A DNA stretch of 64,000 nucleotides from Thermoplasmata archaeon (GTDB lineage Archaea; Thermoplasmatota; Thermoplasmata; UBA10834), in NCBI GenBank assembly GCA_029864565.1, contig JAOTTD010000001.1, positions 66,232 through 130,231 on the forward strand. Reading direction: 5' to 3'. The first letter of the stretch is position 1. Every line of letters starts with the position of its first letter. The position numbers and the translations under genes were made by a program. Under the pieces are notes generated by a model. The model was not told the origin of the DNA. It did not search any database and saw only the letters and a program-made list of their open reading frames with translations. Shown one piece after another: positions 7,764 to 44,759 of this stretch.

Positions 7764-8052
7764 TTCATGATATCTTGAAGCTGGGAGACGCAGAACGGCG
7801 GCCGATGTCACGCTGGGCGCCATCGCAAGAACGGGGTCTGCACCGTTAGTCAGTACCGCTCATTGCGCAAAGTTCGTATAGTGCGCAACTGTTCATTGGT
7901 TGGAGAGAGCGCTTTACATTTGTTCGATTGCAGGGGAGACAAAGAACCGCGCGGCCGAGCCCAAGATCCGTGCGTCTGCGAGGCTCGGCCGAAACACTCC
8001 CTTTGACGCAGACGACGCGCCCTCTTTCGACCAGGGGAGGAGGAAATTCGAG

Positions 8053-13229: not shown

Positions 13230-14140
13230 CTCCTCAACCCCTTCATGCGCGGGTCCAGCACGTCCCGCAGACCGTCTCCCAACAGGTTGAAGCCAAGGAT
13301 TGTGGCGACCATCGTGACTCCCGGGAAAGTAGATATCCAGGGGGCGTTGCCAAGGTAAAGTATGCCGCTCGACAGCATCCAGCCCCAGCTGGGCGTGGGT
13401 GGCTTCGTGCCGACACCGAGGAAGCTCAGGCTGCTCTCGATCGTGATTGCATCGGCTACGCCTATAGACGCCCAGACAATCAGGGGGGCGATGCAATTCG
13501 GGAGCACATGGGTGAACATGAGCCTCCAGTGCCTGGCACCGAGCGCCCTGCTCGCCTCAACGAACTGCCTCTCCCTCATCGAGAGCGCCTGCCCGCGCAT
13601 CAGCCTCGCGAAACCCGCCCAGTACGATATCGATATGGCGAGTATCACATTCATCAGACCTGCACCGAGGGCCGCGGCGAAAGCGAGCGCCAGTAGAAAC
13701 GGCGGGAAGGTCCAGAACAGGTCGATTGTGCCGGATATTATGTAATCGACCTTGCCGCCGAAATATCCAGCGGTCAAGCCGAGGACGATACCAATCATCA
13801 TTGAGACGACAACCGCGACCATGGCGACCGTGAGAGAGACTCTCGCGCCCCAGATGACCCTGCTGAAGACATCTCGCCCGTTCTCATCCGTGCCAAACCA
13901 GTTCTCAGACGACGGGGAAAGGAGCTGCTGGCCAGGCTCAAGATTCTGTTGGGTAGGGTCCGCAATCGGGAGCACAGGTGCGAGGAGGGCGATTGATATG
14001 ATGATCACGATCATCGTGAAACCAATCACGACCATCGGGTTCCTGCCACCTCTTTCGAGTATGCCCGCGAGGGTCTGCCTGACTCCGCCGGCCATCTTCC
14101 AGGCCAGCAGCTTGTCGTTCAAAGCCTTCCTCAACCTCAT
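13226..14140 (-). CDS. Peptide ABC transporter permease (OppC/DppC-like)
   Basis: It is polytopic. An N-terminal region is followed by ...ENGRDVFSRVIWGARVSL... and the EAA-like loop EASRALGARHWRLMFTHVLPN. Confidence 0.85.
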   Translation of the reverse strand: MRLRKALNDKLLAWKMAGGVRQTLAGILERGGRNPMVVIGFTMIVIIISIALLAPVLPIADPTQQNLEPGQQLLSPSSENWFGTDENGRDVFSRVIWGARVSLTVAMVAVVVSMMIGIVLGLTAGYFGGKVDYIISGTIDLFWTFPPFLLALAFAAALGAGLMNVILAISISYWAGFARLMRGQALSMRERQFVEASRALGARHWRLMFTHVLPNCIAPLIVWASIGVADAITIESSLSFLGVGTKPPTPSWGWMLSSGILYLGNAPWISTFPGVTMVATILGFNLLGDGLRDVLDPRMKGLRR

Positions 14141-15078
14141 CCGAGCCTCACCCGCGGATCCACGTATGCGTACAGTATGTCAGCGAACAGATTTCCTGCA
14201 ATCACGAAGAAGGCCAGTACCAGAATGCATCCCTGCACCACGGGGAAATCGCTGTTAGATATGGACGTGGTTATGAGCATCCCTATACCTGGCCATTGGA
14301 AGACGGTCTCGACAACGACTGACCCGCCGATGAACCATCCAATGTCCAGGCCAATGACGGTTATGACTGGGAGGATGGCGTTCTTCAGCGCGTGCCTGTA
14401 TATGATCTCCTTCTCGGGTAGGCCTCGGGAGCGTAGCTGAGTGATGTAGTCCTGGCGTATCACCTCCAACATGCTTGACCGCATCATCCTAGTTGTCAGC
14501 GCTGCGTTTCCTAAGCCGAGAGTCATAGCAGGGAGTATGATACTGCCGAACCCTCCAGTAGTCCCCTCTATTGGCAGCCACCCGAGCTCCACTGCGAACA
14601 GCAGCATGAGCAGTATGCCGAGCCAGAACGAAGGCATGGCGTAGGCGAGCAGTGTGAAAACCATGACGCTCCTGTCCCCGAGTGTGTTGTGCCTCAAGGC
14701 TGAGAATACCCCAAGGGGAATGCCGAGTGAGTAAGACATCCCCAGGCCTATGCCCATCAGCTCCAATGTCCTGGGCAGCCTCTGGACTATCAAGCCGGAG
14801 ACATCGAGATTCCTGGTCGCCGCGCCAATGGAGATCCCGAGGTCGCCGTGCACCAGCCGCCACAGGAATAACCCGTACTGGACATAGGGGGGGTCGTTCA
14901 AGCCATACTTGTCCCTGATGGCGTCCAGTTCCTCAACGGACGCGTGAGGCGGCGCCAGGGCGGTTATGGGGTCCCCTGGGGTCAGGTACAACATCAGGAA
15001 CACTATCAGAGTAGCCAGTAAGATGATCGGTATAGCCAGCAGCATCTTCCTGATGACGTATGAGGCGAGGTCGGCCAA
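14137..15078 (-). CDS. Peptide ABC transporter permease (OppB/DppB-like)
   Basis: It is polytopic. The EAA loop IRQDYITQLRSRGLPEKEIIYRHALKNAILPV is present. It overlaps the downstream gene by 4 nt. Confidence 0.85.
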   Translation of the reverse strand: MADLASYVIRKMLLAIPIILLATLIVFLMLYLTPGDPITALAPPHASVEELDAIRDKYGLNDPPYVQYGLFLWRLVHGDLGISIGAATRNLDVSGLIVQRLPRTLELMGIGLGMSYSLGIPLGVFSALRHNTLGDRSVMVFTLLAYAMPSFWLGILLMLLFAVELGWLPIEGTTGGFGSIILPAMTLGLGNAALTTRMMRSSMLEVIRQDYITQLRSRGLPEKEIIYRHALKNAILPVITVIGLDIGWFIGGSVVVETVFQWPGIGMLITTSISNSDFPVVQGCILVLAFFVIAGNLFADILYAYVDPRVRLG

Positions 15079-15205
15079 CTCACCCGCCCCCTTCGAACCT
15101 CAAGTTAGTCCTTGACATCGCCTGATTCGCTCCGAGTTCCTGTCCCTTTGAGACCCGCGCCGTGTTAAATCAGGAAAGGGTTTGAGGGTTTGGAGTGCGC
15201 CGGAC

Positions 15206-16933
15206 CTACTTCTCTATGTCGACGTCCACTATGTTGATGACTTGCTCCTGTCCGAGCGGGTTGACAGCCCATCCGGGGTCGCCCTTGAACGTCACATAGT
15301 TGTGGACCGCGAATATCTGGTGCCAGAATACTAGCGGAGTCCACGCGGCCTGTTCCAGCAACCGTATGTGCGCCGCAGTCGCGTTGTCTGAGAATTCCTG
15401 CTCGGTCTCCGCATATGTCCAGTTGGTCACGTAGTCGTCGAACACGTCGTCAATATACCATCCGGTGTTGGACCCTCCAGCAGCCCACGTGCCGAAGTGC
15501 CAGTCCAGTATCTCGGCCCTCGGCCAAGAGTACCAGAACAGGATGGCTTCCTGGCTGCCTTCCGAGGCCATGTCTCTGAGCTGCGTCTCGGCGTACGGGG
15601 TGAGCGTGACGTGGACTCCGACATCCTCGAACTGCTCCTGGACTATCTCGCCCATCTGGATGTCCTCGCCCTTGTTCGTCGTCCAGAGGTCCAAGGACAG
15701 CTCTCCCGAGGCGTTCTCTAGCCATCCGTCGTCGTCTGTGTCCGTGAATCCGGCAGCTTCGAAGAGATCCATCGCCTTGTCGACATCATACGTGTAGTTG
15801 TACTCCGCCGCGACGTTGTACGATTCGGGCTCGATTGGCGAGAGCAGGTTCACACCCTCCTCGGCGAGGCCATGCCAGACCGTGCTTACAATCTGAGCCC
15901 TGTTCACGGCGTAGCAGAATGCTTTACGGAGCGTCGGGTTGTCCCACGGGTCCTTCTGGCAGTTGAATTCGACATGGTATGTGCCCTGGCCCGGTCCCGT
16001 GATCACGGTGAGGGCGGAATCGTCCTCATACGCCTGCACCTTGCTTGGAGGCACCTGCTGCAAGACGTCTATCGCACCACTCTCGAACCCGGCGAACCTC
16101 GTGGCCTGGTCCGTGATGATCCTGTAGATTATCTTGTCTATATTCGCGGGGCCCTTGTTCTCATACCATGAGAAACCCCAGTCGTAGTCCGGGTTCTTGA
16201 CGAGGGTGATGTGATCTCCGGGGATCCACTCATCGAGCATGTACGGTCCTGTCCCGACGACCTTTCCATTGGCGGTGCCGTACAGGTCCAGACCATCCTC
16301 TTCGAGCGCGTCCGGGCCCATCATCGAACCGTACAGGTGCGAGAGGTTGAACTGCAGGGCCACATCTGCCCACGTCAGGTTCAGGACCATGTTGTAATCG
16401 TCCTTGCACCATATGCCAGCGTCTGGCCAACCGGTCTTGTTCTCGCAGCCGTAGATGGCCCAGAACTCGTACTGGACCCAGCTGTCGTCCTGGGCGTAGT
16501 AGTTGATTATCCTCTTCACCGCGTCCGTGTCGAATGGCAGCCCGTCATGGAACTTTACACCCTGTTTCAGCCGGATCTCGAAAGTCGGGTGGTCCGGGTC
16601 CGTCCGGTTCATGTTCCACCACTCGGCAAGCCCATCGGCGTAGTCGCCGTTCAGGTCCCTCGTGATGAGAGTTTCGTAGATCAAGCCGGGCGGGCCATAC
16701 ATCGCGCTGGTCTTGGCAGGATCCATGGCCTGTACGTCGGAGCTCATAGCTACGACCAGGACTTTCTCGTCGCTCTCCCCTCCCAACAGTCCGAAGGCCC
16801 ACGCACCCGCGAGACCTGCGACTAAGAGGACCACGACGATTACGGCCGCGATTAGAGCCCTGCTCTGCGGGCGGCCGGGTCGTGCCTTCGGTTGTGCAAC
16901 TCCACTCCCAGATTCACTCTCTGAACTCCCCAC
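15206..16933 (-). CDS. ABC transporter substrate-binding protein, family 5 (peptide/nickel), N-terminally membrane-anchored
   Basis: At 575 aa it is the size of a peptide SBP. A TM anchor (LIAAVIVVVLLVAGLAGAWAF) follows a Ser/Glu-rich tail. It heads the opp-like operon. Confidence 0.8.
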   Translation of the reverse strand: MGSSESESGSGVAQPKARPGRPQSRALIAAVIVVVLLVAGLAGAWAFGLLGGESDEKVLVVAMSSDVQAMDPAKTSAMYGPPGLIYETLITRDLNGDYADGLAEWWNMNRTDPDHPTFEIRLKQGVKFHDGLPFDTDAVKRIINYYAQDDSWVQYEFWAIYGCENKTGWPDAGIWCKDDYNMVLNLTWADVALQFNLSHLYGSMMGPDALEEDGLDLYGTANGKVVGTGPYMLDEWIPGDHITLVKNPDYDWGFSWYENKGPANIDKIIYRIITDQATRFAGFESGAIDVLQQVPPSKVQAYEDDSALTVITGPGQGTYHVEFNCQKDPWDNPTLRKAFCYAVNRAQIVSTVWHGLAEEGVNLLSPIEPESYNVAAEYNYTYDVDKAMDLFEAAGFTDTDDDGWLENASGELSLDLWTTNKGEDIQMGEIVQEQFEDVGVHVTLTPYAETQLRDMASEGSQEAILFWYSWPRAEILDWHFGTWAAGGSNTGWYIDDVFDDYVTNWTYAETEQEFSDNATAAHIRLLEQAAWTPLVFWHQIFAVHNYVTFKGDPGWAVNPLGQEQVINIVDVDIEK

Positions 16934-18597: not shown

Positions 18598-20622
18598 TCA
18601 GTATGTGACCAGCTCGATGGATTTCAGGTCTTGAACGAACCGAAGGACATTCTTGTGGTCGGTCGGGCCGTACTCGGCAGAGACGAATTCCGTGATATCG
18701 GCGAGAGAGCGTCTTCCGTCCATGAGATTGACGACCTCATACATCTTCCTCGTGAATTGGGGATCCTTCGTCTCGACTTTTCCATACCATCCGTACCTCT
18801 CCTCGCCAAGCTTCTCAGACATGAGGTCGGCGTCGAGCGTGCCCTTGAACCTTCTTCGGGGGACAATCGCCTTCGCCTCCTTCTCAGCTTTCGACAATCT
18901 CATCGCCCCGCGTTTGACGGATGCACGGCCATCGGACACAGCAACGATGATACTGTCGAGTCTGAGCTGCTCCCTCGAGCCGTGCTCTTCGACCGCCTCC
19001 GCCTGCGATTTGACAAAATCGTCTGACCCCGCCGCCTTATCGAGCCTTCTGACAGATAGCACCGCACGCACCTCTCTTCGGACGGAGTGTCTGACTCTCA
19101 ACCCATGGTATTGCGCGACCCTGTTAAACTCGACTCCATTGTCGGAGGGATCAAATGCCTCGTAGAGTTCCATCGCGGCAGCTTCGACTGCTTCGGAAAT
19201 CCTTCTGATGCCCTCAGAGCAGACCAGGATGGCCAGTTTGCGAACCATTCTCGAATCGGCACTGGCGAGAGTCAACGCAGAGGTGGCGGCCGCCCATCCT
19301 ACTCGTCGCAGGCTGTCCTCGCTCACGTTGTCGATCGTGTCCATGCTCGTGTGATAGAACAGGTCTGGCCACTGCGTCAGGCTCACACATGGGACTCCAA
19401 CCGTGGACTCGTTGAACTCCGCGTGGTCGCTCCCACCAGTGAATTGCGTCCTCGTGTATCTGAAGTTGCCCGGGATGCCGAGCTTGACCATGCTGTCGTA
19501 TTCGGAGTTCGAGCGCCCCATCATGGAGTACACGAGGTCGTTCAGGTACGACGGCATCGTATCCGGCGTGCAATCCATGCACAGGGTGGACTTGCACCGA
19601 GCCTGATCCTCACCCACCATGTCCATGTTGATTCCGGCAACGAGCCTCTTGTGCAGCTCAGGATGCTTCGACAGGTACGCCACGCTTCCGACCGTCTCAG
19701 GGACCCAGAGGAGCCGGATTGTACGCCTCGGCCTCTTGATCTTGCCTGAGGCGACCAGAGAAGTGATCGTCCTAGCGAGCTCGAGTAACAGGCCGCTGCC
19801 CGACGCGTTGTCGTTGGCGCTCGGCTTGGGGTGACAGAGGTGGGCGACGAGGACTATCTCCTCGTCGGGCATGTCCGAACCGCGGAACGTGCAGGTCACG
19901 ACGCTGTATCTCCCGGGCGATAGGTCGGCATCCACCTTGGCGTGTAATCGGACAGGTTTGGCGCTGCGCAGAAGGTCCCTGAGCTCGTTCCCCTGACGCT
20001 TGCTGAGAGAGAAGCCAAACTTGATCTTGCCCGCGCTCTTAGCGTTCGGCCATATACCCTGATACGAGTGGGCGTCCGGTATGTCGATGCTCTCACGAAC
20101 TCCTGGGAACTCGTACGTCAGGCTGTCAGTAATGACGCCGGCGGCGCCACGCTTGACGACTGCCTCGTGCTGAACCGTCTTACCCTTGCCTGTGGTCAAC
20201 ACGAACTTGCCCTTGACGCTTTTCCCCGCATAGTCCTCATCAGACAAGCCCTTTCCGACGTCCACCAGCTCGGCGGTCACGCCCTGCTTCGGCGTGCTTC
20301 GGCTGAACGTGTGGAGGGATTGTGGCACTTCCTCGTGCCTCGCTAGCACGCGGACGTCGGGCTCCACGAGTGACAGTTCTGCGCTTCTCACGTCCCATCC
20401 CATCACGGACGTGTAGGTCCAGTACTTCCGACGGCCATCAGCGGGGTAGTGCTCGATGGTGGCATCTTCCATGCCCATCTTGACCAGCTCCTCCTTCACG
20501 TAGACTGCCGCATCGCGCATCATCGGCGATCCCTGTATCCGGTGGAATTCCGTCAAGCCGGCTACGTAGCTCTTGGCAGAAGACCCCGACAGTTCGTCTT
20601 TCACAACCTTCCCGAGTTCCAT
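18598..20622 (-). CDS. M28-family zinc peptidase with PA domain and C-terminal winged-helix-like region (no signal peptide)
   Basis: Zn-ligand contexts (VLVAHLCHPKPSANDNASG, GINMDMVGED, FTGGSDHAEF) show the aminopeptidase fold. A PA-like insert and a roughly 200-aa C-terminal extension are present. Confidence 0.65.
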   Translation of the reverse strand: MELGKVVKDELSGSSAKSYVAGLTEFHRIQGSPMMRDAAVYVKEELVKMGMEDATIEHYPADGRRKYWTYTSVMGWDVRSAELSLVEPDVRVLARHEEVPQSLHTFSRSTPKQGVTAELVDVGKGLSDEDYAGKSVKGKFVLTTGKGKTVQHEAVVKRGAAGVITDSLTYEFPGVRESIDIPDAHSYQGIWPNAKSAGKIKFGFSLSKRQGNELRDLLRSAKPVRLHAKVDADLSPGRYSVVTCTFRGSDMPDEEIVLVAHLCHPKPSANDNASGSGLLLELARTITSLVASGKIKRPRRTIRLLWVPETVGSVAYLSKHPELHKRLVAGINMDMVGEDQARCKSTLCMDCTPDTMPSYLNDLVYSMMGRSNSEYDSMVKLGIPGNFRYTRTQFTGGSDHAEFNESTVGVPCVSLTQWPDLFYHTSMDTIDNVSEDSLRRVGWAAATSALTLASADSRMVRKLAILVCSEGIRRISEAVEAAAMELYEAFDPSDNGVEFNRVAQYHGLRVRHSVRREVRAVLSVRRLDKAAGSDDFVKSQAEAVEEHGSREQLRLDSIIVAVSDGRASVKRGAMRLSKAEKEAKAIVPRRRFKGTLDADLMSEKLGEERYGWYGKVETKDPQFTRKMYEVVNLMDGRRSLADITEFVSAEYGPTDHKNVLRFVQDLKSIELVTY

Positions 20623-20764: not shown

Positions 20765-22948
20765 TCACTGCAGGACGGCTTCTAGAGGTGCAGTGGCGTT
20801 CCCCCACTCCACTTCGAGTTTCAGTACATCCTCCATGAACCAATCCTCGAGCGTCTGGCGGTCGTATTCGAGGTCGTCCAACGCCTCCTCCGCCGTCATC
20901 GATCCGTCCTTGAGGCCCAGATAGACGTCCTGGATATCGATGTAGCTCTGTGCCTGGTCGAAATCGTCGCCCCAGTACATGAAGCAGTCCATCATCTGGC
21001 CGTAGACGTCCAAGTACGCTTCCCTGCCGCAGTAGATGCCCCACTCCATGCTTCGCACGCTCTTCAATGCGGTCGCAGCCGCGCCGGTCGCGCCGCTTTC
21101 GAGCGCAAGCATGGCCGACATGACGGCTTTGTGGTCAGTCGCGTGCTGGTGAGGTCTCATGAGTGGCTCCCACGAGGCCATCATGCCTCCCTCGCCCATC
21201 GTCCACGGGATGAATATCCTCCTCGCGTCGATGACGGCGCGGTTCAGCTCGTCCGCCATCTCCACCACTTTCGCTTTCTTCTGCGGGGACATCGCGGAGG
21301 CGTACATCGCCTCAATCTCCGCGGCCCTCGCATTGATGGAGACATATAGGCTCTCGAGGTCTGTGAGAACTGCCAAGGCAGCGTCAATGGTAGAGCGCTG
21401 AGACGGCACCATGGGTCTCTCCTTCGCGAGGTTCTGAGCGGCCCAGCCACACACAGGCACGAAATCCAGCGGCAGCAGGAGCGCGTTCACCGACCTGAAG
21501 GCCATCAAAGCGGTGAGCTCCATCACCATGGCCAACATGTCCTCTGACTGCAGTTCGATGTCGTCGATCTGGGTATGATAGTACGGATCGAATCCCGCTC
21601 CCCACACCATCTCTATCGCAGTCCCTCCGCCCTTGCCCGCGAACGACCACGCGTCGGTCCAGGTCCAAACAGGCGTGTAGCAGTTCAAGACGTTCCGATA
21701 TCCCAGGTCGGAGATGGCGCTCCACACGAACGCGGAGGCCTCGATGGAGATCTCCAGCCACACCTTCCCTCCCGTCTTCGGGAAGCTGCCGCCATCGATG
21801 TTGAGCTCCAATACGAGGCCGTCCATGATATCGGGATGGGCGCATACGAATTCGTACGAGCCGATTAGCCAGTTGAACCACGTCCCGTCAGCACCGCCGC
21901 TCTCCTCCGAGCCGACCGAGCAGAACACCAAAGTCCTCTCGTTCACGTACTCGCGTGATTCTCTGGCTTCGGAGAACATCCTAGCCATCTCAAGCATGAT
22001 GGCGATGGATGAGCAGTCGTCGAACGAGCCCGCCCACCATGTGTCGATGTGGCCGGAGATGACAACGTATTCGTCAGCTCGAGTCGTGCCCAACAGAACG
22101 CCGGCGACATTCACGGATTTGGCATTTGGATAGAAGTCCACCTGGCCGGACATCTCCAGTTCGATATCGCCGTCGTACTCCTCCAGCAACGCCTGTATCC
22201 TGGCTGCGGAGTTGGGCGATATCGATATCGCCGGGATTGGCGAGAACACTGAGTCCTGCTTGATGCCCTCGGGGTGGTCGGCACCCGTGAAGTAGCCGTA
22301 GAACACGACAGCCGAGGCGCCGTGATACGCCGCCTCCGACGCTGGCACGTTGGGCCATCCCTGAGTGTTGTCCTCTCTGTGGACAAGGGCGATCGCCCCG
22401 TCAAGAGGGCCGGCCTGATCGAAATCATCGGCAGTCCCATAGCCCACATCGACGACCTTGGCAGTGAGTGTCTTCCTGTCGTCGCTATTTCCGTAAGCAT
22501 AGAGCGTGCCGTTGTCGTAGCCCCAAACCGACGGTGAATCGCCGTATGTGGTCGCATCGATGCTCTCAAGCTCGCCATCGGGCAGTACTATGTCCACCGT
22601 CGTCCCGTTATGGTCCCAGTTGGCCACTCGGAATGTCTCCCACCACACTTCGACCAGAGGCATCTCGGACAGCTGATCATACACGTATTGCTGGGCAGCG
22701 AGCTCCTCCTCCGACCCTGCAGTCTTCTCACCGAGGCCGGATAGATACTCAAGCTGAGCCCACGCATGTTCGTAGTCGAGTCTCTCGAGCAATGCAATCT
22801 CGCCATCGGTCAGGTTCTTCGGCTTCTGAGTGCCGATAGTCGGCATGCCGTAAGTCACTGGCATCGCTATGACGATTGCGAAAGTCAACGCTAATCCTAT
22901 TCCAACTAGTTTGCGAATCGGTTTCCCCCCTTGGCATAACCCCGACAT
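20765..22948 (-). CDS. Membrane-anchored M28/PA-domain peptidase (transferrin-receptor/PSMA-like architecture)
   Basis: There is an N-terminal TM segment (LVGIGLALTFAIVIAMPV). A PA-like region and M28 metal-binding motifs follow (VVISGHIDTWWAGSFDDCSS, FCSVGSEESGGADG, YYHTQID). A helical domain lies at the C-terminus. Confidence 0.65.
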   Translation of the reverse strand: MSGLCQGGKPIRKLVGIGLALTFAIVIAMPVTYGMPTIGTQKPKNLTDGEIALLERLDYEHAWAQLEYLSGLGEKTAGSEEELAAQQYVYDQLSEMPLVEVWWETFRVANWDHNGTTVDIVLPDGELESIDATTYGDSPSVWGYDNGTLYAYGNSDDRKTLTAKVVDVGYGTADDFDQAGPLDGAIALVHREDNTQGWPNVPASEAAYHGASAVVFYGYFTGADHPEGIKQDSVFSPIPAISISPNSAARIQALLEEYDGDIELEMSGQVDFYPNAKSVNVAGVLLGTTRADEYVVISGHIDTWWAGSFDDCSSIAIMLEMARMFSEARESREYVNERTLVFCSVGSEESGGADGTWFNWLIGSYEFVCAHPDIMDGLVLELNIDGGSFPKTGGKVWLEISIEASAFVWSAISDLGYRNVLNCYTPVWTWTDAWSFAGKGGGTAIEMVWGAGFDPYYHTQIDDIELQSEDMLAMVMELTALMAFRSVNALLLPLDFVPVCGWAAQNLAKERPMVPSQRSTIDAALAVLTDLESLYVSINARAAEIEAMYASAMSPQKKAKVVEMADELNRAVIDARRIFIPWTMGEGGMMASWEPLMRPHQHATDHKAVMSAMLALESGATGAAATALKSVRSMEWGIYCGREAYLDVYGQMMDCFMYWGDDFDQAQSYIDIQDVYLGLKDGSMTAEEALDDLEYDRQTLEDWFMEDVLKLEVEWGNATAPLEAVLQ

Positions 22949-24308: not shown

Positions 24309-25748
24309 ATGGCAGTCGCACGAATCAGATTCTTAGACCAGGACGAAGAGGAGCTCATACACCAGCAAAGCATAGAGTGCCTCGAGACAATTGGAGTGAA
24401 GGTCAAGAGCGAACGAGTCCTCGGCATGCTGAAAGAGGCCGGGGCGGCCGTAGAACCGAAGACTCAAGTGGCCAGGCTGCCAGAGAGCATGATTGAGGCC
24501 GCATTATCCAATGTTCCGAAAAGGATGATTCTGCACGGAAGGGATCCCAAGAACGACATGAGGATACCTGTCACTTCATGGCCGTACGTTGGCACATCGG
24601 GACTTGCCACATACATAATCGACGTCAAGACGGGAAAGAAGCGCGATTCGACAGTCAAGGACATCGCCGACTGCGTCAAGCTTGCCGACGGCCTGTCCGG
24701 CGTCGACTACACACAGACCTCCTTGACCGCGACGGAGGTTCCTCAGCAGACCCACGGCCTGCACGAGCTCTGGACCGCCCTGCAAAACACCACCAAGCAC
24801 GTCCAGGGCATCGAAATATTCGACGCAGAGGACGCTCGGAAGCAGGTCGAACTCGGAGCGCTGGTTGCGGGCGGCGAGGAAGAGCTGGACAAGAGGCCGC
24901 ACTTTACGGTCATTCACTGCTCGATTGCTCCGCTCATGTTCGAGCATGACGCTGTCGAGGCGATGGTCGAGTTCGCAATGGCTGGTGTGCCCATCACGAC
25001 GATGTCGATGTCACTCTCTGGTGGAACAGCACCTGTCACTCTTGCAGGAACGCTGGTGAACGCCAACTCGGAGAATCTGGCCAGCTTCGTGATTGGCCAG
25101 GCTGCGAGGAAGGGTGCGCGAACCGTATACTGCTCGTCCTCCACGCCGGTCAACATGAGCACCGGCATGATACACTACCAGAGCGCCAACCAGCCGCTGA
25201 TAGCGGCTGGGCTAGCCCAGATGGCTCGACGGTACGGCCTCCCTTGCATGGTCGGCGATTGGGGCCTCAATGACACGGATGTCCCAGGATTTCCGCACAC
25301 ATTCAGCGAGACCATGGGGATTGCACTCAGCACTATGTCTGGAACGGACATGATGGGAGGCGTTGGGTCGCTGGACAACGCCAAGGGCATGGCGCTCGAG
25401 CAGGAAGTCATCGACTCCTACGTCTGGGAGAATGTGCGGATGCAGATGACTCCTTTTGAGATCAGCAAGGCGACCGCTGCACTCGATGTGATTAGGGAGG
25501 TCGGGCACGGCAACACATTCCTCACCAACATCCACACCGCACGCAACTTCCGAAGGGAGGCTATCCAAAGAGACTCTGACAAGGGCAGGTTCGAATCCAC
25601 CATGTCTAAGGCGATGGTCGCGGAGGCAAAGGAAATCGCGGTGAGGCTCCTCAGGGAGCACGAGGTTACGCCGTTGGAGGAATCCGTCGTCCGGCAGGGC
25701 AACGAGCTGATAAAGAACTTCGAAAAGGAACGGATCAGACGCGCGTAA
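24309..25748 (+). CDS. MttB-superfamily (trimethylamine methyltransferase-like, COG5598) methyltransferase, non-pyrrolysine
   Basis: The 479-aa ORF is continuous with no in-frame amber. It shows MttB-family similarity along its whole length. The sizes and gene order match MtgB/MtpB-type quaternary-amine:corrinoid methyltransferases. Confidence 0.8.
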   Translation: MAVARIRFLDQDEEELIHQQSIECLETIGVKVKSERVLGMLKEAGAAVEPKTQVARLPESMIEAALSNVPKRMILHGRDPKNDMRIPVTSWPYVGTSGLATYIIDVKTGKKRDSTVKDIADCVKLADGLSGVDYTQTSLTATEVPQQTHGLHELWTALQNTTKHVQGIEIFDAEDARKQVELGALVAGGEEELDKRPHFTVIHCSIAPLMFEHDAVEAMVEFAMAGVPITTMSMSLSGGTAPVTLAGTLVNANSENLASFVIGQAARKGARTVYCSSSTPVNMSTGMIHYQSANQPLIAAGLAQMARRYGLPCMVGDWGLNDTDVPGFPHTFSETMGIALSTMSGTDMMGGVGSLDNAKGMALEQEVIDSYVWENVRMQMTPFEISKATAALDVIREVGHGNTFLTNIHTARNFRREAIQRDSDKGRFESTMSKAMVAEAKEIAVRLLREHEVTPLEESVVRQGNELIKNFEKERIRRA

Positions 25749-29531: not shown

Positions 29532-31433
29532 TCAGTTGTCGCTCGAACTCACGACAGGCGGACTCGCCGTGATCGGAGCCGAGTGCGCATGACCCCCAGA
29601 TTCTGGCCAGCGTTCGAACACGTGTTCGAGCTTGTCGAGGATCATGTACGAGAGACCTCCGAGTAGCCCGATCATGACTGCTTGTGGTATAAACATCCAC
29701 CACCAGCCGCTAATGAGCCCGCCTTCGTTGTACGCATCGGTTATCACGCTAGCCCAACCCACGTCGATCAAGTCGCGGATGGAGAACATGAAGTTGCCGT
29801 GAGGAAGTAGCATCTCAACCATAACTGCGGACAAGAACCCGAACAAGACGACGAACTTGGTGATGTGCAGCGACCTGGCAATCACTCCAGGAAGGGGCAT
29901 CGTCGCGGCTCCCTCACGAATCTCCGATGCTATCTCGGCCAGAAGCGTCCTTGTAGCTTCGGCCTTGGCAAATGGCGCGGAAATCCAAGCAATGAACATA
30001 ACGATAAAAAGGGCGATAGAACTGCCCGTCAGGACCCCGGCGATTGACGACAATAAGAATATCAGCGCGATGAACACATCCGCGAGAATCCATACTACCC
30101 AGCTTATGGACCGCACCATCGTGATGTCGAGTCTCCTCGCGTAGCCACCGACAAAAGTGCTCGACATTCCTACCACCAGCGCTAGCGCGGCCACAATTAT
30201 CACGATGGAGATAGAATCCGCGGAATCGTACAGCAACATGCTATAGATGTCGCGACCCAAAGAATTGGTACCGAGTGGGTGAATTACCCCAGAGTCCGGC
30301 GATGGGCTAAGAGATGGCTCTGCAAGGATATCTCCCATTAATGAACTCGGGTCATATGGGTCCTTCACTGTTGCCAGCAAAGGCGCAAGAAGTGAGATCA
30401 CTATCAATAGAATGAAAGCCGCCATAGCGCACATGCCGGTCCGGCTCTTCCTGTATGCAGCCCACACACGCCTGATGGTCAGAAGGTTGATGTGCGTTCT
30501 AAATCCGGCGCGACGCCTACTAGTCTCAGCCTTCTCAGGCAAATGTCGCACGGAATGCGGTCCGGAAGCGAGAATGATTGTGATATCGAGAACGAGAAAC
30601 ATAATCAGCATAATCGAGCTTACAATGAATGCGCATGCCATGAAGACCGGGGGATCATACATTATTGAGCGGAACATCACGGCTCCAATCCCATCATATC
30701 TGGCGAGCGATTCAATCGCGAGAACGGAGGTCATCACAAGCGCGAGGAAGAATGACATTACTGCGGCGGTTCGCGACGTCGCCATAGCTCTCAAGGTGCG
30801 CCTCATGAAATTCACGCTCCGATCGGAGGACATAGGACGTACCACCCTCTCGAACACGAGGACAGCCGCGGCTGCGATGGATATCATGCAGGAGAGGAAA
30901 AGCGCTAATTCAAGGACACTTTCGACAGCGAGATCAGACCATTCATTAACCGCTAAGGTGAAGGCGAAGTATAACACGACGACCGGGAAGACGGCTAGAA
31001 CCAAGGCCACTACCCGCATGATCCTTCCGGGCGCACCTCCCAGGCGTCTTTCGGCCAGCCACGCGTAGCCGAATCCGGCGACGATAACAAAGGCGGTGAC
31101 GACAATCAACCGCACGGCAGTCGCGAAGACATCGTGGTAGATGAAATCGGAAGTTGATTCAAGAGGCCGCACGCCAGCAGATAGGAAGAATTCGCCCGAG
31201 ATCATCTTAACCATGAAATTGATGTATTGATCCCCTCTCGGTTCGCCAATCTTGAGGTCATCGAGTATGGCTTCGGTTCGGACGTCGGGGTCCAAAGGCC
31301 GCAGCCTTGCTTCATCGCCGACGACAAAGAACATCAGGTAGGTCAGCGTCAGAACCAGGAACACCGCTACGAGGAAGACCACTATCCTGCCAGCTATCAA
31401 GAGAAGGGTATTCCTATCCAAGGTCGCCACCAC
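29532..31433 (-). CDS. Fused polytopic ABC-type permease (DppB-like + DppC-like halves), no cognate ATPase or binding protein adjacent
   Basis: The protein is 633 aa with roughly 12 TM segments. The second half begins with the OppC-type N-terminal signature (DPYDPSSLMGDILAEPS...LGTNSLGRDIYSML). The first half resembles DppB. It is divergent from the canonical permeases at 13-15 kb. Confidence 0.55.
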   Translation of the reverse strand: MVATLDRNTLLLIAGRIVVFLVAVFLVLTLTYLMFFVVGDEARLRPLDPDVRTEAILDDLKIGEPRGDQYINFMVKMISGEFFLSAGVRPLESTSDFIYHDVFATAVRLIVVTAFVIVAGFGYAWLAERRLGGAPGRIMRVVALVLAVFPVVVLYFAFTLAVNEWSDLAVESVLELALFLSCMISIAAAAVLVFERVVRPMSSDRSVNFMRRTLRAMATSRTAAVMSFFLALVMTSVLAIESLARYDGIGAVMFRSIMYDPPVFMACAFIVSSIMLIMFLVLDITIILASGPHSVRHLPEKAETSRRRAGFRTHINLLTIRRVWAAYRKSRTGMCAMAAFILLIVISLLAPLLATVKDPYDPSSLMGDILAEPSLSPSPDSGVIHPLGTNSLGRDIYSMLLYDSADSISIVIIVAALALVVGMSSTFVGGYARRLDITMVRSISWVVWILADVFIALIFLLSSIAGVLTGSSIALFIVMFIAWISAPFAKAEATRTLLAEIASEIREGAATMPLPGVIARSLHITKFVVLFGFLSAVMVEMLLPHGNFMFSIRDLIDVGWASVITDAYNEGGLISGWWWMFIPQAVMIGLLGGLSYMILDKLEHVFERWPESGGHAHSAPITASPPVVSSSDN

Positions 31434-31539: not shown

Positions 31540-32934
31540 CTAAGGTTTGTCAAGTTCCGATGGCTCCAGCTTCAAGCCGATGGCAGCCATGTCCCGCTTG
31601 TACCTCTTGATGAGCGCGGCGTATTCCTTGCTCGGCCTCCTCTTCGTGGCGTTCCAGCACTCCTGGAGCGGCTTGCCGAGAGGCGGCGATGTGAGCTTGC
31701 GCTCGTACTTCTTCAGCAGCTTCTTGGCCATCTCGTTCGCGTCGGACCGCTTCATCCCAGCGACGGCGTGTCCTACCTCGGCCGATATCCTCGGCTCGAC
31801 CGGCGTTACACGATCCTCGTACTTGTTCGTCGCGACCCCGACAGATTCCATCGACAATCCGGAGACGACGGCGGCCATGACAGAGGCGGATGTCTCGTAC
31901 AGGCACATTGGCGTGCACGGACCCGCTGCAGTGTAGTTGAGGCTTATGCTGAGCAGATCGGTGTTTCTGCTTATCGCCTGCCCCATTGTGCTGATGGTCC
32001 ACAGCATCTCCCTGCTGCTGTTGGATACGTAGCGGAGATGCAGAGGGAACGGTATGAGATAGCTCGTCTGCAGCGTGAGCACGCCCATCAGGTGCGTCGC
32101 CACCGTCCCGACCGCAGTGCCCTCGGGTCCGCCCGAGTAACCCCCCAGCAACGGCGAGAAGTCCATACCGATCGGAGCGCCAATAGAATGCGCGATGACA
32201 GCCTTGTTCAGCCTGGCGAAGTCTACCTTCATAGGGTCCATGCTGGCAATCATGAATCCGTCGGACGGTCTGAGGCCGAACCTCGGATGAACAGCCGCGG
32301 CGAGCGATACGTCGGACTCCGCCGTTGCGAGCGTGTTCATGAAGGGCTTGCCCTCCCGGCCCACTCGATTGCACGCCTCCCTGCCCAATGTGGCGTTCCT
32401 CATCGTCGCATAGAGCTCCAGAGGCGAAGCGGGTCTCACACGCATTCCGCTGACCCTAGTTAGCGCGGGCGTGGTAATCGAGTTGGTCTGCGGTATCTCC
32501 GCGAAGCCTTCCATCAGCGTCAGGAACGACTCGTCACTGGAGACTGGCCCTCCGGCAGCCCCCAACAGGCACCATGGCGGTGTCTTGTCCCCGATCTTCC
32601 TGGGGACCATCGCTTTCCTGTCACGGCCTTCACCGAAGAACACCTTGGATGGCGCGTTCCGCAATGCCTCGCGCACTTCGGATTCGGTAAAGGATATCAC
32701 CCTGCTGCTGTCCATACAGTACGCGCCCACATCGACCAAGAGTTCGAGGCCTGCCTCGAAAAGGTCGTCTGCGATGGAGTTTTCGTTCGGGATCGGATTC
32801 TCCGAATCGAACTCTATCTTGTACTCCCTGACCTTCTCCGCCACCTTGGGGGCGTATCTCCTCAGCTGATAGTCGTTCTCACTCAACGGAACGCCGTTGA
32901 GAGCCTTCTCCATGACATCGAGTACTTGCACCAT
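31540..32934 (-). CDS. Monomethylamine methyltransferase MtmB homolog, full-length, without pyrrolysine
   Basis: Blocks match MtmB along the full length: DDLFEAGLELLVDVGAYCMDSSRV, GEGRDRKAMVPRKIGDKTPPW, LGGYSGGPEGTAVGTVATHLMGVL, AGPCTPMCLYETSAS and GKPLQECWNATKRRPSKEY. The frame is uninterrupted over 464 codons. ATG at 32934 follows a GGGGGA RBS. Confidence 0.8.
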   Translation of the reverse strand: MVQVLDVMEKALNGVPLSENDYQLRRYAPKVAEKVREYKIEFDSENPIPNENSIADDLFEAGLELLVDVGAYCMDSSRVISFTESEVREALRNAPSKVFFGEGRDRKAMVPRKIGDKTPPWCLLGAAGGPVSSDESFLTLMEGFAEIPQTNSITTPALTRVSGMRVRPASPLELYATMRNATLGREACNRVGREGKPFMNTLATAESDVSLAAAVHPRFGLRPSDGFMIASMDPMKVDFARLNKAVIAHSIGAPIGMDFSPLLGGYSGGPEGTAVGTVATHLMGVLTLQTSYLIPFPLHLRYVSNSSREMLWTISTMGQAISRNTDLLSISLNYTAAGPCTPMCLYETSASVMAAVVSGLSMESVGVATNKYEDRVTPVEPRISAEVGHAVAGMKRSDANEMAKKLLKKYERKLTSPPLGKPLQECWNATKRRPSKEYAALIKRYKRDMAAIGLKLEPSELDKP

Positions 32935-33006
32935 CACATATCCCCCTGGCTCCTAAGGCCGAACACGACAGAGCTTGTACGAGATAAAACCTTTGTCATC
33001 CAGGGT

Positions 33007-41143: not shown

Positions 41144-41420
41144 TCGCCCAGTAGCCCTTCCACTATTCCCCAACAAAGGAGGGGCTGAGGAGTACAAGCC
41201 TACCTACGATCCTCTGGCGAAGTGGGCTTCCGAGAAGGGATTCGAATGGGTCGGCCCGCCGGTCTAGACATACCCCAAGAAACCAGAGGTCGTCGATGCC
41301 GGGATTATCCTACGTGCCAAGGCCATGGCTCCCGTCAGGAAGAGGTGACCGCATCTGAGCTGATAGGCTTGAAGCCCGACGATTCAGTGTCCGTTATCAG
41401 AATTGATACCCTCCCCACCG

Positions 41421-41431
41421 CGATATATAAA
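41421..41431 (+). promoter_or_regulatory. TATA box (cgatatataaa) about 30-40 nt upstream of the ABC ATPase start
   Basis: An AT-rich octamer in GC-rich DNA is preceded by the BRE-like ccaccgcg. Confidence 0.5.
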
Positions 41432-41456
41432 CCATCGCTGCGCTAAGACGGGACAG

Positions 41457-42380
41457 GTGTCTCCTTTGATAGAAGCCAACGGCCTCTGCAAGGATTACAG
41501 GCAGGTTAGAGCGCTCGACAACGTCAGCCTCCGTGTGGGAAGGGGAGAGATCTTCGGATTCTTCGGACCGAACGGAGCCGGCAAGACCACGTGCATCAAG
41601 GTGCTGTGCGGTCTCACGGCCGCAACTGGTGGCGACGCGTCGGTGATGGGCATCGACGTCGGCAGGGCGCCTGTGCACGTGAGGGACAACATCGCAATAC
41701 TGTCCGAGGAGAGCAGGTTCTACGAGGAGATGACCCCGAGACGCTACCTGAACATGTTCGGCAAGTTCATGCTAATGAACCGGCCTGAGAGGCTCTCCGC
41801 CCTCAACAAGGCGGCCGACCTGGCGGACATAAGGCCTTTCATTGACAGAAGGATCGCCAACCTGTCGATGGGACAGCGTCAGAGGGTGTCACTCGCCAGG
41901 GTGCTCATGTCGGATGTGCCGCTCGTGTTCCTCGACGAGCCATTCGAGGGCGTGGACATCATCCACAGGAAGAGGCTGAGAGAGCATTTCAGGGAGTACG
42001 TCTCCAGGGGCAACACGGTATTCTTCACCTCCCACAATCTGATCGAGGCGGAGCATATCGTCGACAGATTTGCGTTCATACATCACGGAAAGCTCATCGC
42101 AATCGGCACGGCGGAGGAGCTTAAGGAGAAGTACCTCGCGCCGTCGTACATGCTGCATGTGTCTAACCCCCAGAAGGCCAGAAAGGTCCTGGACGACAAC
42201 CTCCGACTCCAGTCCATCAGCATCGTCGAGGGCAACGTCTCCGTCGTGCTCGCCCGTAGGGGCCACGCCTCGGAGATCGCGAAGCTGCTGATACGCGAGA
42301 ACATCGACCTCTACGAGATGAAGTCGGTGGGGACCATGGAGGAGGTATTCGAGAGGACGACCAGGGGTGATATCCAATGA
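41457..42380 (+). CDS. ABC transporter ATP-binding protein (ABC-2 / exporter type)
   Basis: It has Walker A (GPNGAGKTT), LSMGQRQR and Walker B (LDEPFEGVD). It overlaps the downstream permease by 4 nt. The start codon is ambiguous (GTG 41457 or TTG 41466). Confidence 0.85.
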   Translation: MSPLIEANGLCKDYRQVRALDNVSLRVGRGEIFGFFGPNGAGKTTCIKVLCGLTAATGGDASVMGIDVGRAPVHVRDNIAILSEESRFYEEMTPRRYLNMFGKFMLMNRPERLSALNKAADLADIRPFIDRRIANLSMGQRQRVSLARVLMSDVPLVFLDEPFEGVDIIHRKRLREHFREYVSRGNTVFFTSHNLIEAEHIVDRFAFIHHGKLIAIGTAEELKEKYLAPSYMLHVSNPQKARKVLDDNLRLQSISIVEGNVSVVLARRGHASEIAKLLIRENIDLYEMKSVGTMEEVFERTTRGDIQ

Positions 42381-44251
42381 ACATGGATATTCCACCGCCG
42401 CCCGAGGACGACTCCGAGCTTCCGCCGCCGCCGGCCGAGATCGCAGAGCAGACCCACCACTACCCGAAGATCGAGGTGCAAAAGTCAGGGCCGCTCGACA
42501 CGATCAAGAGGGCCGTCGTGATATTCGAGAAGGACATCAGAACGATGGCCAAGCACGGTCTGGCTAGCTCGGTGATACTGTTCGTATTCCTTCTGATTAT
42601 ATTCTCGATCATGAGCTTCGCAATGAAGCAGGCGATGAGCTTCGACATCGGGGCTATGATGGACGGCGACGAAATCGATGTGCCATGGGCTACGGAGAGC
42701 AATCCGCCTGTCGCAGACGCTGGATACGACAGGTCGATACCTGCTGGCACGACCATAACCCTAGACGCATCTGGCTCGTACGACGACGATCGGATCGTTC
42801 ACTACCAGTGGTCGTTCTGGGAGGTGGACTACAACGTGGACTTGTTCGGCGAGAGAGTAGACTACACATTCAACTACGTTGGGACCTACGAGATTCGCCT
42901 AACAGTCGCAGACTTCTCGATCAACCAGGCGGAGGACAACTTGACCATCACGGTCATGCACGCCACCTCGGACACTGAGGCGCCTTGGGTGGACTATCTT
43001 CAGAACGTTGAGGCCGAAGTCGACGATACCGTAGACTTGGCCGCTGTCAACTCAACGGACAACGTAGGTGTCATCAACTGGACCTGGGTCGTCCACGATG
43101 TTGTGCAGACGAAGCTCTACGGAGAGCAAGTGAGCCACACCTTCCCGTACGCCAGCCACGGGAGCCTCGGCGTCACGCTGATACTGAGAGACGCCTCGGG
43201 GAACTACAACAACTACTGGTTCGGAGTCACCGTGTACCCGCGGTATGAGGACGACGACTGGCCATGGGCTGAGGTCAACGAGCCTGGAATCGTGGCCCTC
43301 GGCGATGCGGTGACGCTCGACGGCACGGGCTCGGGCGATGATTCCGGCTCAATCGATACCTACACATGGTACATACTCCACAACGGCACCTACACGATGC
43401 TCACTGGGCAGACGGTTGAGCTCACGCCGGCCGAATGGGGTTGGTACGAAGTCATGCTAATAGTCCGCGACGAGGCGGGAAACTACAATGACGAATGGGC
43501 AGCCAGGACTGGGTTCATCGTCGCGCCGTCAGGTGTCGACGAGGTCAACGCGATAACCTGGAAGAGCACACCCTTTGGAATCGATGTGTCGTTCCACCTC
43601 CTCACGTACGCGTACGGTGTTGCTCTGCTTACGTCCGTGATTTTCGTCGGTGGACTATTCGCGAAGGGCTTCTCGCACGAGATACAGAAAGGCACGATCA
43701 AGGTCCTCTTCTTCGGACCCATATCCGTGACGACCACGATCTTCTCCAAAATACTCTACCCGATTGTTGTCGGACCGTTCCTCATCTTCCCGCTGACCAT
43801 GGCGGTTCTCGCGACCTTTGAGCAGGACCCTGGAGAGGTATTCGTGATAACCCTCGTGGCGTACCTGCTCGCGGTCACGACCATGGTCGCTGCGGCGTAC
43901 GGTTCTAGTCTCATATACGTGGCGACGAAGAGGATGGTGCTCAAGCCGACCGTGATATCCAGGATGTTCCTGTACTTCTCGCTCCTCGGCACCATGACGG
44001 TGTTCGAATGGCTATCGCTCGTGATGGACCTTTGGTTGAAGGTCGACACCTATGGCGACCTGTACTATGCTCACGGCGGTACCGTCGCGCTGCTGTCCCC
44101 GTTCCACCAGGGAGGGGTGTACCTGTCGAGCCTAATCATGGAGACATCGCAGAGCCCCGATTGGTGGGTGTTCGCTATACCGTTCGTGCTCATTGGGCTT
44201 GGCATAGTCGCATCCAGGAAGCTGTATCCCGACCTGTTCTCCAGGGAATAG
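42377..44251 (+). CDS. ABC-2-type permease with ~300-aa extracellular insert containing three PKD-like repeats
   Basis: An N-terminal Pro/Glu-rich tail and TM1 are followed by three repeats of the PKD-type pattern (VADAGYDRSIPAGTTITLDASGSYDDDRIVHYQWSF, VNSTDNVGVINWTWVV...TLILRDASGNYNNYWFGVTV, LDGTGSGDDSGSIDTYTWYI...VRDEAGNYNDEW). Five or six C-terminal TM helices of ABC-2 type follow. Confidence 0.7.
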   Translation: MNMDIPPPPEDDSELPPPPAEIAEQTHHYPKIEVQKSGPLDTIKRAVVIFEKDIRTMAKHGLASSVILFVFLLIIFSIMSFAMKQAMSFDIGAMMDGDEIDVPWATESNPPVADAGYDRSIPAGTTITLDASGSYDDDRIVHYQWSFWEVDYNVDLFGERVDYTFNYVGTYEIRLTVADFSINQAEDNLTITVMHATSDTEAPWVDYLQNVEAEVDDTVDLAAVNSTDNVGVINWTWVVHDVVQTKLYGEQVSHTFPYASHGSLGVTLILRDASGNYNNYWFGVTVYPRYEDDDWPWAEVNEPGIVALGDAVTLDGTGSGDDSGSIDTYTWYILHNGTYTMLTGQTVELTPAEWGWYEVMLIVRDEAGNYNDEWAARTGFIVAPSGVDEVNAITWKSTPFGIDVSFHLLTYAYGVALLTSVIFVGGLFAKGFSHEIQKGTIKVLFFGPISVTTTIFSKILYPIVVGPFLIFPLTMAVLATFEQDPGEVFVITLVAYLLAVTTMVAAAYGSSLIYVATKRMVLKPTVISRMFLYFSLLGTMTVFEWLSLVMDLWLKVDTYGDLYYAHGGTVALLSPFHQGGVYLSSLIMETSQSPDWWVFAIPFVLIGLGIVASRKLYPDLFSRE

Positions 44252-44309: not shown

Positions 44310-44759
44310 CTACAGGGCATCGAGCCTGGCCTTGTTAGCCTCGTTCTCCTTGCCCATCCTCTCCAGTATCCTCGCGGCCTCGGCGAGCAGTGACTTCGCG
44401 GTCTTGGACGAATCCAAGTAGAATCTGGACGAAGTCAGCTCGACCTTCCCAGCAAACTCCTTCGCGCCGGCCACGTCGACGCCGGCGGGCACCTCTGTCT
44501 CTATCACGTAGTTGCTGCTGTCGATATCCTGGATGGGTTCGAGTATCATCTCGTTGAGCTTCTCCCTCCGGGTGTGTTCGAGGATGTCGCTGCGTTTCCT
44601 ATGGGAGTCCGCCAACGCCTTCAGCGGTTCCTTGGTCGACGCGAGTTCGGGCCTGGCAGCAAGGTCGTCGTATATCGCCGACGTCGCTTTCTCGAGTTCC
44701 AGGGCGAACCTGATCACGGAGCCGAAGGATGTGCACTCCGGGAACTCGTACTCGGCCAT
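44310..44759 (-). CDS. Hypothetical protein (helical, acidic)
   Basis: The start is set at MAEYEFPECTSFG. The upstream part of the ORF-track frame is Arg/His-rich and abuts the mmsA stop. Confidence 0.4.
   Translation of the reverse strand: MAEYEFPECTSFGSVIRFALELEKATSAIYDDLAARPELASTKEPLKALADSHRKRSDILEHTRREKLNEMILEPIQDIDSSNYVIETEVPAGVDVAGAKEFAGKVELTSSRFYLDSSKTAKSLLAEAARILERMGKENEANKARLDAL

Follow-up and report, generated by a model that had tools for sequence, protein, structure and literature searches.

A probable ABC-2-type exporter with extracellular PKD domains in a Thermoplasmata archaeon

ATP-binding cassette (ABC) transporters of the ABC-2 type are among the commonest exporters, and the role of the outer domain is understood for only a few of them, such as the lipid exporters of the ABCA group. 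In ABCA exporters a large extracellular domain lies between the first and second transmembrane (TM) helices, TM1 and TM2, and permeases of the NatB/ABC2_membrane_3 type carry large domains at the same position. Here we describe an ABC ATPase gene and a permease gene that lie side by side in a 64,000-nucleotide (nt) stretch of DNA from a Thermoplasmata archaeon (contig JAOTTD010000001.1; hereafter the window, to which all positions refer), and whose permease bears three tandem PKD domains in that place. With moderate confidence, we take the pair to be a homodimeric, two-gene exporter of the ABC-2 (type V-like) class, crowned with these domains. The public entry identical to the permease is named 'PKD domain-containing protein [Thermoplasmata archaeon]', an annotation by which the transporter nature is currently missed.

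An earlier reading made from the letters alone (the sequence-only reading) had stated that ABC-2 permeases normally have a modest outer loop. This was too general, given the large outer loops of the ABCA and NatB/ABC2_membrane_3 types; since the plan of TM1, outer domain and five further TM helices is known from them, a large loop is not unusual in itself. The distinctive points are the tandem PKD domains of which the loop is made and the membrane core, which belongs to a small and separate subfamily that curated profiles miss. A literature search on PKD/Ig-like domains in ABC-2 permeases, and on Gimiplasmatales, returned no description of a PKD-bearing ABC-2 permease.

The three PKD repeats are real and far beyond chance, as Pfam scores, β-sandwich models and profile matches to solved PKD domains all indicate. 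The whole permease matched PKD_4 (PF18911) with an E value of 5.4e-25, and the Pfam families K319L-like_PKD and PKD were also matched. When the three repeats were scanned one by one, each alone exceeded the PF18911 gathering score of 27 bits (Table 1), so that the three PKD-like repeats of the sequence-only reading are now backed by a profile scan. Pairwise identity among the repeats is 25–34%.

AlphaFold2, with 34 homologues as input, modeled the repeats as three β-sandwiches with predicted local distance difference test (pLDDT) scores of ~85–93, the last strand of the third domain extending to about residue 383. A family profile searched against solved structures matched the PKD domains of KIAA0319L (E 2.5e-17) and of the clostridial collagenase ColH (E 2.2e-12); the full-family profile matched PKD domains alone among the solved structures and nothing for the membrane part. 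With the full-length model, a fold search likewise found nothing but tandem Ig-like and FnIII arrays and was silent on the membrane part. Consequently, TM2–TM6 was modeled by itself.

We judged the topology from hydropathy, charge counts, N-x-S/T sequons, homology and the model helices. Hydropathy, positive-inside counts, the model and the sequons gave a permease with six TM helices, whose two termini face the cytoplasm and whose large loop faces outward. A very hydrophobic helix, TM1, was found by hydropathy at residues 65–83; it is followed by a loop of 320 residues and then by five more hydrophobic helices between residues 404 and 616, present in the model too. The arrangement is thus the one described from the letters alone, namely a Pro/Glu-rich N-terminal tail (MNMDIPPPPEDDSELPPPPAEIAEQ) with a single strong TM helix, an insert of about 300 residues, and TM helices after it.

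The loops following TM2 and TM4 contain four lysine or arginine residues each and at most one aspartate or glutamate, which fits the positive-inside rule. The 320-residue insert holds 54 acidic residues versus 11 lysines and arginines, and the short TM3–TM4 loop is likewise acidic. The mean net charge of the insert is -33 across the 34 homologues, cysteine is nearly absent from it, and sequons occur at 1.33 per 100 residues in the insert versus 0.08 in the remainder of the protein. The sequon N336-x-T (N336-G-T in the query), located in the third PKD domain, is kept in all 34 homologues, and N234-W-T in 27 of them. In the closest relatives with no insert, the same position is a TM1–TM2 loop of 5–38 residues. 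Because charge distribution, sequon enrichment and homology all agree, the PKD block is outside the cell and both permease termini are inside, as the sequence-only reading had supposed when it called the repeats extracytoplasmic.

The upstream gene of the pair encodes an ATPase with the motifs GPNGAGKT (Walker A), LSMGQR (signature), LVFLDEP (Walker B) and TSH (H-loop). It matched ABC_tran (PF00005) with an E value of 5.2e-27 and 95.6 bits, against a cut-off of 25. The best NCBIfam match was drrA (TIGR01188, E 1.6e-60), at 205 bits and thus not over the DrrA subfamily cut-off of 312.45 bits. The closest solved relatives were the nucleotide-binding domains (NBDs) of ABCA1, ABCA3, ABCA7 and ABCA4 (E 7e-50), and NosF was matched with an E value of 1.5e-27. 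In all 33 three-PKD loci that reach that far, the permease is immediately preceded by an ATPase match; all four motifs are readable in at least 27 of these, the signature (as LSxGQR) and the H-loop in every one.

The TM bundle can be placed in the ABC-2 clan indirectly, through intermediate relatives and profiles. Among close homologues, 17 of 34 matched PF12730 (best E 7.5e-5), and a few matched PF12679 or PF12698. When a TM2–TM6 profile was run against 1.84 billion representative proteins, it retrieved only 50 relatives; the 39 that were scanned showed affinities to PF12730 (19), PF12679 (9, weak), PF12698 (6) and CcmB (2). A two-PKD relative (P0140), which matched the query TM profile with an E value of 2e-19, scored 36.6 bits with PF12698, over the cut-off of 31.6. 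Furthermore, a broader TM-only family profile matched Escherichia coli CcmB (7f02_B, E 9e-4) across TM2–TM6, in an alignment that takes in the post-TM2 loop motif E/DxxxG[ST]xxxLxxxP. The best fold matches of the TM2–TM6 model (pLDDT 79.6, predicted template-modeling score 0.78) were mostly type V proteins: ABCA3, ABCG5/8, NosY, ABCA4, CcmB, ABCH, PmtCD and Wzm.

Conservation is uneven along the permease. In the 34 homologues, mean pairwise identity was 74% in the pre-TM1 segment, the highest of the protein, and 66% in TM2–TM6 with their loops; it was 43–47% in the PKD domains, the least conserved folded parts, and 35% in the linker between TM1 and the first PKD domain. This variable linker has a pLDDT of 39 in the model. 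In the linker between the third PKD domain and TM2, W395, T398 and P399 are invariant. Residues 39–88, that is, the pre-TM1 segment and TM1, form a single continuous helix in the model. The most conserved segments, the C-terminal motif among them, are cytoplasmic. Selection thus acts hardest on the elements that would couple the ATPase to the membrane, a pattern of conservation that argues for a working ATP-driven machine.

The Pro/Glu-rich tail of the permease opens with MNMDIPPPPEDDSELPPPP. It includes the motif ELPPPP (residues 14–19, nt 42416–42433), of which E14, L15 and P16–P19 are at least 90% conserved in the 34 homologues; the tail is otherwise variable. The motif is specific to the three-PKD clade and is not found in two-PKD or no-insert relatives, some of which have N-terminal zinc ribbons instead. 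This polyproline motif may serve as a docking motif.

The wider membrane family comprises several size classes: about 625–686 residues with three PKD domains, 450–486 residues with two and 263–367 residues with no insert. Two further members of ~560 residues have an insert of ~280 residues of no assigned domain. Given that the family has two-PKD and no-insert members, the ABC-2 core is a compact one into which the PKD block was inserted in a lineage-specific way. Common to all classes are the pre-TM1 motif KD..+..GL, the post-TM2 motif ExxKGT(V/I)R.L..YP, the TM5–TM6 motif SP(Y/F)HxGG and the C-terminal motif LYPD(I/V)F.(R/K)E, the last of which reads LYPDLFSRE in our permease. S574 and H577 are the only residues invariant across the wide family.

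Full-length homologues of the permease form more than 200 clusters at 44–85% identity, and all those with a taxon label are Thermoplasmata-type metagenome-assembled genomes; together with the two-PKD sister class, they show that the architecture, for which the sequence-only reading had proposed a database search, is a recurrent one. Among GTDB species representatives we found 31 loci, titled Thermoplasmata, Thermoplasmatota or generically Euryarchaeota/Methanobacteriota, and including chromosomes of 1.7 Mb and 1.98 Mb. In public data the homologues are labeled 'PKD domain-containing protein' or 'hypothetical protein', and some, wrongly, 'chitodextrinase' or 'plastocyanin'.

Down to 44% identity the gene order is constant, namely TauE, AOR, (GyrI-like), ATPase, permease, a convergent orphan of 149 residues, Aldedh and aminotransferases, meaning that the pair is a resident, vertically inherited one. 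The permease genes of the two-PKD class also follow an ABC ATPase gene with a 4-nt overlap (gene calls), in unrelated neighborhoods, so that the ATPase–permease pair is the sole conserved unit. No solute-binding protein gene is conserved beside the pair in the three-PKD and two-PKD loci examined. The convergent 149-residue open reading frame (ORF; 44310–44759, minus strand in the window) abuts the aldehyde dehydrogenase gene in all loci examined and had no Pfam match.

In at least 13 related loci, an intact GyrI-like gene of 156–162 residues lies between the AOR and ABC ATPase genes. Its counterpart in the window (41166–41345, plus strand) is a relic, with the C-terminal ~60 residues left and an in-frame stop, at 47–49% identity (E 2e-12) to the intact genes. 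Part of what looks like a 320-nt intergenic gap is therefore a decayed gene.

The two genes share the tetranucleotide ATGA, in which the ATPase stop codon TGA and the permease start codon ATG (42377–42379) overlap by 4 nt, just as had been read in the earlier work; the overlap recurs in every related locus. The sequence GGGGTGAT, a Shine-Dalgarno-like element within the 3' end of the ATPase gene, is placed so as to fit translational coupling of permease to ATPase.

The ATPase start had been put at 41403 in the sequence-only reading. Homologues and gene callers, however, agree on the TTG at 41466, which gives a protein of 304 residues; the TTG at 41403 is merely that of the longest ORF, and it lies upstream of a conserved TATA box and inside a conserved palindrome. 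When 28 distinct related loci were aligned over the 120 nt that precede the ATPase start, four blocks were conserved at a level of at least 90% and the remaining intergenic sequence was variable. The blocks were the palindrome, T.TAT.A, CTA and GGTG, the palindrome sitting just upstream of the TATA box. The latter, ATATATAAA, had already been noticed ahead of the pair and proved to be conserved in position across the 28 loci. The gene pair has, in other words, a dedicated conserved promoter. The palindrome is a candidate operator, or binding site for a regulator. No second exact copy of it occurs in the 64-kb window, so no regulon could be proposed.

Table 1. Features of the ATPase–permease locus (positions in the window)
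Feature	Position	Strand	Remarks
Palindrome TTATCA-N5-GATA(c)	41394..41409		TTATC-N6-GATAA type; conserved block TTATCA-N5-GATA(t/a)cc spans 41394–41411
TATA-like box ATATATAAA	41423..41431	+	35 nt before ATPase start codon; T.TAT.A at same place in related loci
Shine-Dalgarno-like GGTG	41456..41459	+	6 nt before ATPase start; at least 90% conserved in related loci
ABC ATPase	41466..42380	+	304 residues; TTG start; TGA stop 42378–42380
Shine-Dalgarno-like GGGGTGAT	42364–42371	+	within ATPase 3' end, 5 nt before permease ATG; read in sequence
Permease	42377..44251	+	624 residues; ATG start; ORF listing
Cytoplasmic Pro/Glu-rich N-tail, residues 1–38	42377..42490	+	pLDDT <50 in model
Amphipathic pre-TM1 helix, residues 39–64, and TM1, residues 65–88	42491..42640	+	pre-TM1 motif IFEKDxRTMAKHGL
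PKD domain 1, residues 109–193	42701..42955	+	PF18911 52.7 bits, E 4.5e-14; PF22352 44.2 bits; PF00801 35.8 bits
PKD domain 2, residues 201–278	42977..43210	+	PF18911 28.0 bits, E 2.4e-6; model pLDDT ~90, β-sandwich
PKD domain 3, residues 296–371 (hidden Markov model)	43262..43489	+	PF18911 33.9 bits, E 3.4e-8; PF00801 32.6 bits
TM2–TM6 bundle, residues 404–624	43586..44248	+	hydropathy; model
Post-TM2 loop HEIQKGT	43676–43696	+	
Outer hairpin motif SPFHQGG	44096–44116	+	

Elsewhere in the window we noted a subtilase of family S8 with 1088 residues (7900–11166, plus strand), two M28 peptidases (18598–20622 and 20765–22948, both on the minus strand) and a peptide ABC importer of the Opp/Dpp type with an SBP_bac_5 binding protein (11225–16933, minus strand), which together point to a peptide-scavenging lifestyle. 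A further ORF of 633 residues (29532–31433, minus strand), whose sole Pfam match is OppC_N at residues 321–363, could encode a permease of the Opp type that has a long N-terminal extension of no assigned domain. Also present are an MttB-family ORF (24309–25748, plus strand; Pfam) and an MtmB-family methyltransferase gene (31540–32937, minus strand; precomputed gene call). ARAGORN found zero tRNA genes across the 64-kb window.

If the pair is indeed a PKD-crowned exporter, its working might be pictured as follows. As each subunit is encoded by a single gene, the default and most likely assembly is (ATPase)2(permease)2, and since each of the two permeases has three PKD domains, the complex would display six of them on the cell surface. 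The first outer loop, 5–38 residues long in the closest no-insert relatives, has grown to ~310 residues by acquiring three tandem PKD domains. The ATPase dimer would bind and hydrolyze ATP, and this would be relayed to the TM bundle by three conserved cytoplasmic elements, namely the pre-TM1 helix, the post-TM2 loop ExxKGT and the C-terminal LYPDxFxRE. The bundle would open outward where the conserved SPxH hairpin, the probable outer exit, joins TM5 to TM6.

In such a complex, the third PKD domain would be tied to TM2 by the conserved linker (W395/T398/P399) and the first would hang from TM1 on the variable one. The combination of a conserved PKD3–TM2 linker with a variable, low-confidence TM1–PKD1 linker suggests that the array is fixed on the TM2 side, and it may stand over the exit as a crown or stalk. 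There it might receive or pass on cargo, or else anchor the transporter to the cell envelope. Possible roles put forward in the sequence-only reading were binding of carbohydrate or protein at the cell surface and anchoring to the S-layer or cell surface.

As for direction, export, or extrusion from the membrane, is our best guess, because there is no binding-protein gene alongside and the fold class is one of exporters. By analogy with other ABC-2 systems, our best guess for the cargo is a hydrophobic or amphipathic molecule drawn from the membrane. The drrA and PF12730 affinities, the GyrI-like gene of at least 13 loci and the regulated-looking promoter give a weak hint of a xenobiotic or amphipathic cargo.

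Several observations weigh against a PKD-crowned ABC-2 exporter. The query TM bundle itself is over no Pfam threshold, the best match being PF12730 at 14.3 bits (E 0.04, cut-off 27). Support for the 'usual ABC-2 TM bundle' of the sequence-only reading is hence indirect: relatives and the family profile reach ABC-2 families, but the query misses their thresholds. The fold matches of the TM2–TM6 model, from which TM1 is absent, were weak, with E values of at least 0.18 and TM-scores of 0.33–0.45. The Q-loop of the ATPase reads ILSEE, without the usual Gln (residues S80-E81-E82, 41703–41711), and does so in the whole three-PKD clade, the region being I(V/I)QEE in the two-PKD clade; ATPase kinetics or coupling may therefore be atypical. 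Finally, the neighboring genes were considered as a clue to the cargo and discarded: AOR, TauE, Aldedh and aminotransferases are syntenic solely in the three-PKD clade and do not occur beside the two-PKD relatives, so that the neighbors offer no clade-wide functional clue.

The main rival, itself unlikely in our opinion, is a mechanotransducer following the logic of FtsEX, MacB/LolCDE or NosDFY, in which ATP hydrolysis would move the firmly attached PKD stalk so that it acts on an external target (the S-layer, an enzyme at the surface or some bound protein), with no substrate crossing the membrane. A conserved PKD3–TM2 linker, set against a variable TM1–PKD1 linker, would fit a force passed on by TM2; one of the best fold matches is NosY, and the genome encodes several secreted peptidases. 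However, relatives without the outer domain keep ExxKGT and SPxH, implying that the core activity does not need a stalk. Moreover, the PKD domains are the least conserved of the folded parts, and no conserved extracellular partner gene was found beside the pair in the loci examined.

We would give a similarly low probability to a resistance pump of the DrrAB or lantibiotic-immunity kind, directed against drugs, toxins or antimicrobial peptides, which would expel a membrane-active compound and whose PKD array would shield or bind. Two affinities point in this direction: that of the ATPase to drrA, its best NCBIfam match, and that of the TM bundle to PF12730, the Pfam family it most often approaches. 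The palindrome conserved in the promoter suggests regulated expression. The intact GyrI-like gene that immediately precedes the ATPase gene in at least 13 related loci would suit such a pump as well, GyrI-like domains being known to bind small molecules; yet that gene is a relic in the window, where the ABC pair is intact, and there is none beside the two-PKD relatives. The drrA score, too, falls short of its cut-off (205 vs 312 bits), and the pair is syntenic and vertically inherited, which is not the behavior of a mobile resistance cassette.

A bolder proposal, which we consider quite doubtful, is that of an ATP-driven surface machine instead of a pump, in which the ABC-2 motor would move a six-domain PKD stalk, fastened through TM2, in the space beneath the S-layer to hold, remodel or hand over some envelope or extracellular component. 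The conserved ELPPPP tail would be the docking site of a partner in the cytoplasm, and expression would respond to a signal by way of the palindrome. If this were true, the pair would be an archaeal counterpart, with a type V fold, of FtsEX or MacB-style mechanotransmission.

Very improbable, instead, is a Na+ efflux pump similar to NatAB. The Joint Genome Institute label of one homologue (P0117) is 'ABC-type Na+ efflux pump permease subunit', and NatB-type permeases are generally known to have a large TM1–TM2 loop too. This label, however, is an automated COG assignment of a single homologue, the others being called chitodextrinase, plastocyanin or hypothetical protein, and no NatB-type NCBIfam model matched the permease, whose matches were confined to PKD-containing regions. 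That the permease is an artefact of mis-assembly, or of a fused gene call joining a PKD surface protein to a membrane protein, is hardly conceivable, as domain order and synteny are uniform among more than 200 full-length homologues (44–85% identity) from independent assemblies and sources, the 1.98-Mb chromosome included.

Irrespective of which reading is adopted, the family is well defined, widespread in Thermoplasmata and conserved, and it is under-annotated. Its signature, ExxKGT plus SPxHxGG plus a C-terminal LYPDxFxRE, can be used for annotating it. As one membrane core is found with three PKD domains, with two and with none among close relatives, the family also provides a natural series on the contribution of an Ig-like crown to an ABC-2 motor. 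The practical importance of the system is limited until a cargo or a phenotype is established.

The type VII mechanotransmission systems MacB, LolCDE and FtsEX resemble the pair in concept only, in that an outer domain between TM1 and TM2 is driven by a cytoplasmic ATPase; they have, however, four TM helices and the FtsX fold, whereas the permease described here has six, and a Pfam scan of it gave no FtsX or MacB_PCD match. The PKD domains of KIAA0319L and of ColH are the best solved relatives of the insert, but they occur in single-pass receptors or secreted enzymes rather than in a transporter loop.

The NosFY system (NosY is ABC2_membrane_2, PF12679; PDB 7O0Z and 7QBA) is similar in having a separate ATPase and an ABC-2 permease with six TM helices. 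NosY nevertheless lacks a large outer domain, and its periplasmic partner NosD is a separate protein; beside our ATPase–permease pair there are no genes for NosD or NosL, and the NosFY matches were all under the curated thresholds. CcmB, of the CcmAB haem exporter (PDB 7F02), was the sole solved membrane protein found by sequence search with the family profile, and the similarity was marginal. It differs in having neither the outer domain nor the SPxH hairpin motif, and in belonging to cytochrome c maturation.

Alike in overall plan are the bacterial ABC2_membrane_3 permeases (PF12698; NatB and YhaP type), in which TM1, a large outer domain and five TM helices follow one another as they do here. 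Our permease remains under the PF12698 threshold, unlike its two-PKD relative, and to our knowledge the outer domains of NatB/YhaP-type proteins are not PKD repeats. ABCA1, ABCA3, ABCA4 and ABCA7, for their part, are eukaryotic single-chain full transporters, with extracellular domains of a non-Ig fold and no sequence similarity to the pair in the TM or outer parts. Their likeness to it lies in the large extracellular domain between TM1 and TM2, in the NBDs, to which the ATPase is closer than to any other solved structure, and, for ABCA3 and ABCA4, in a place among the best fold matches that the TM bundle gave.

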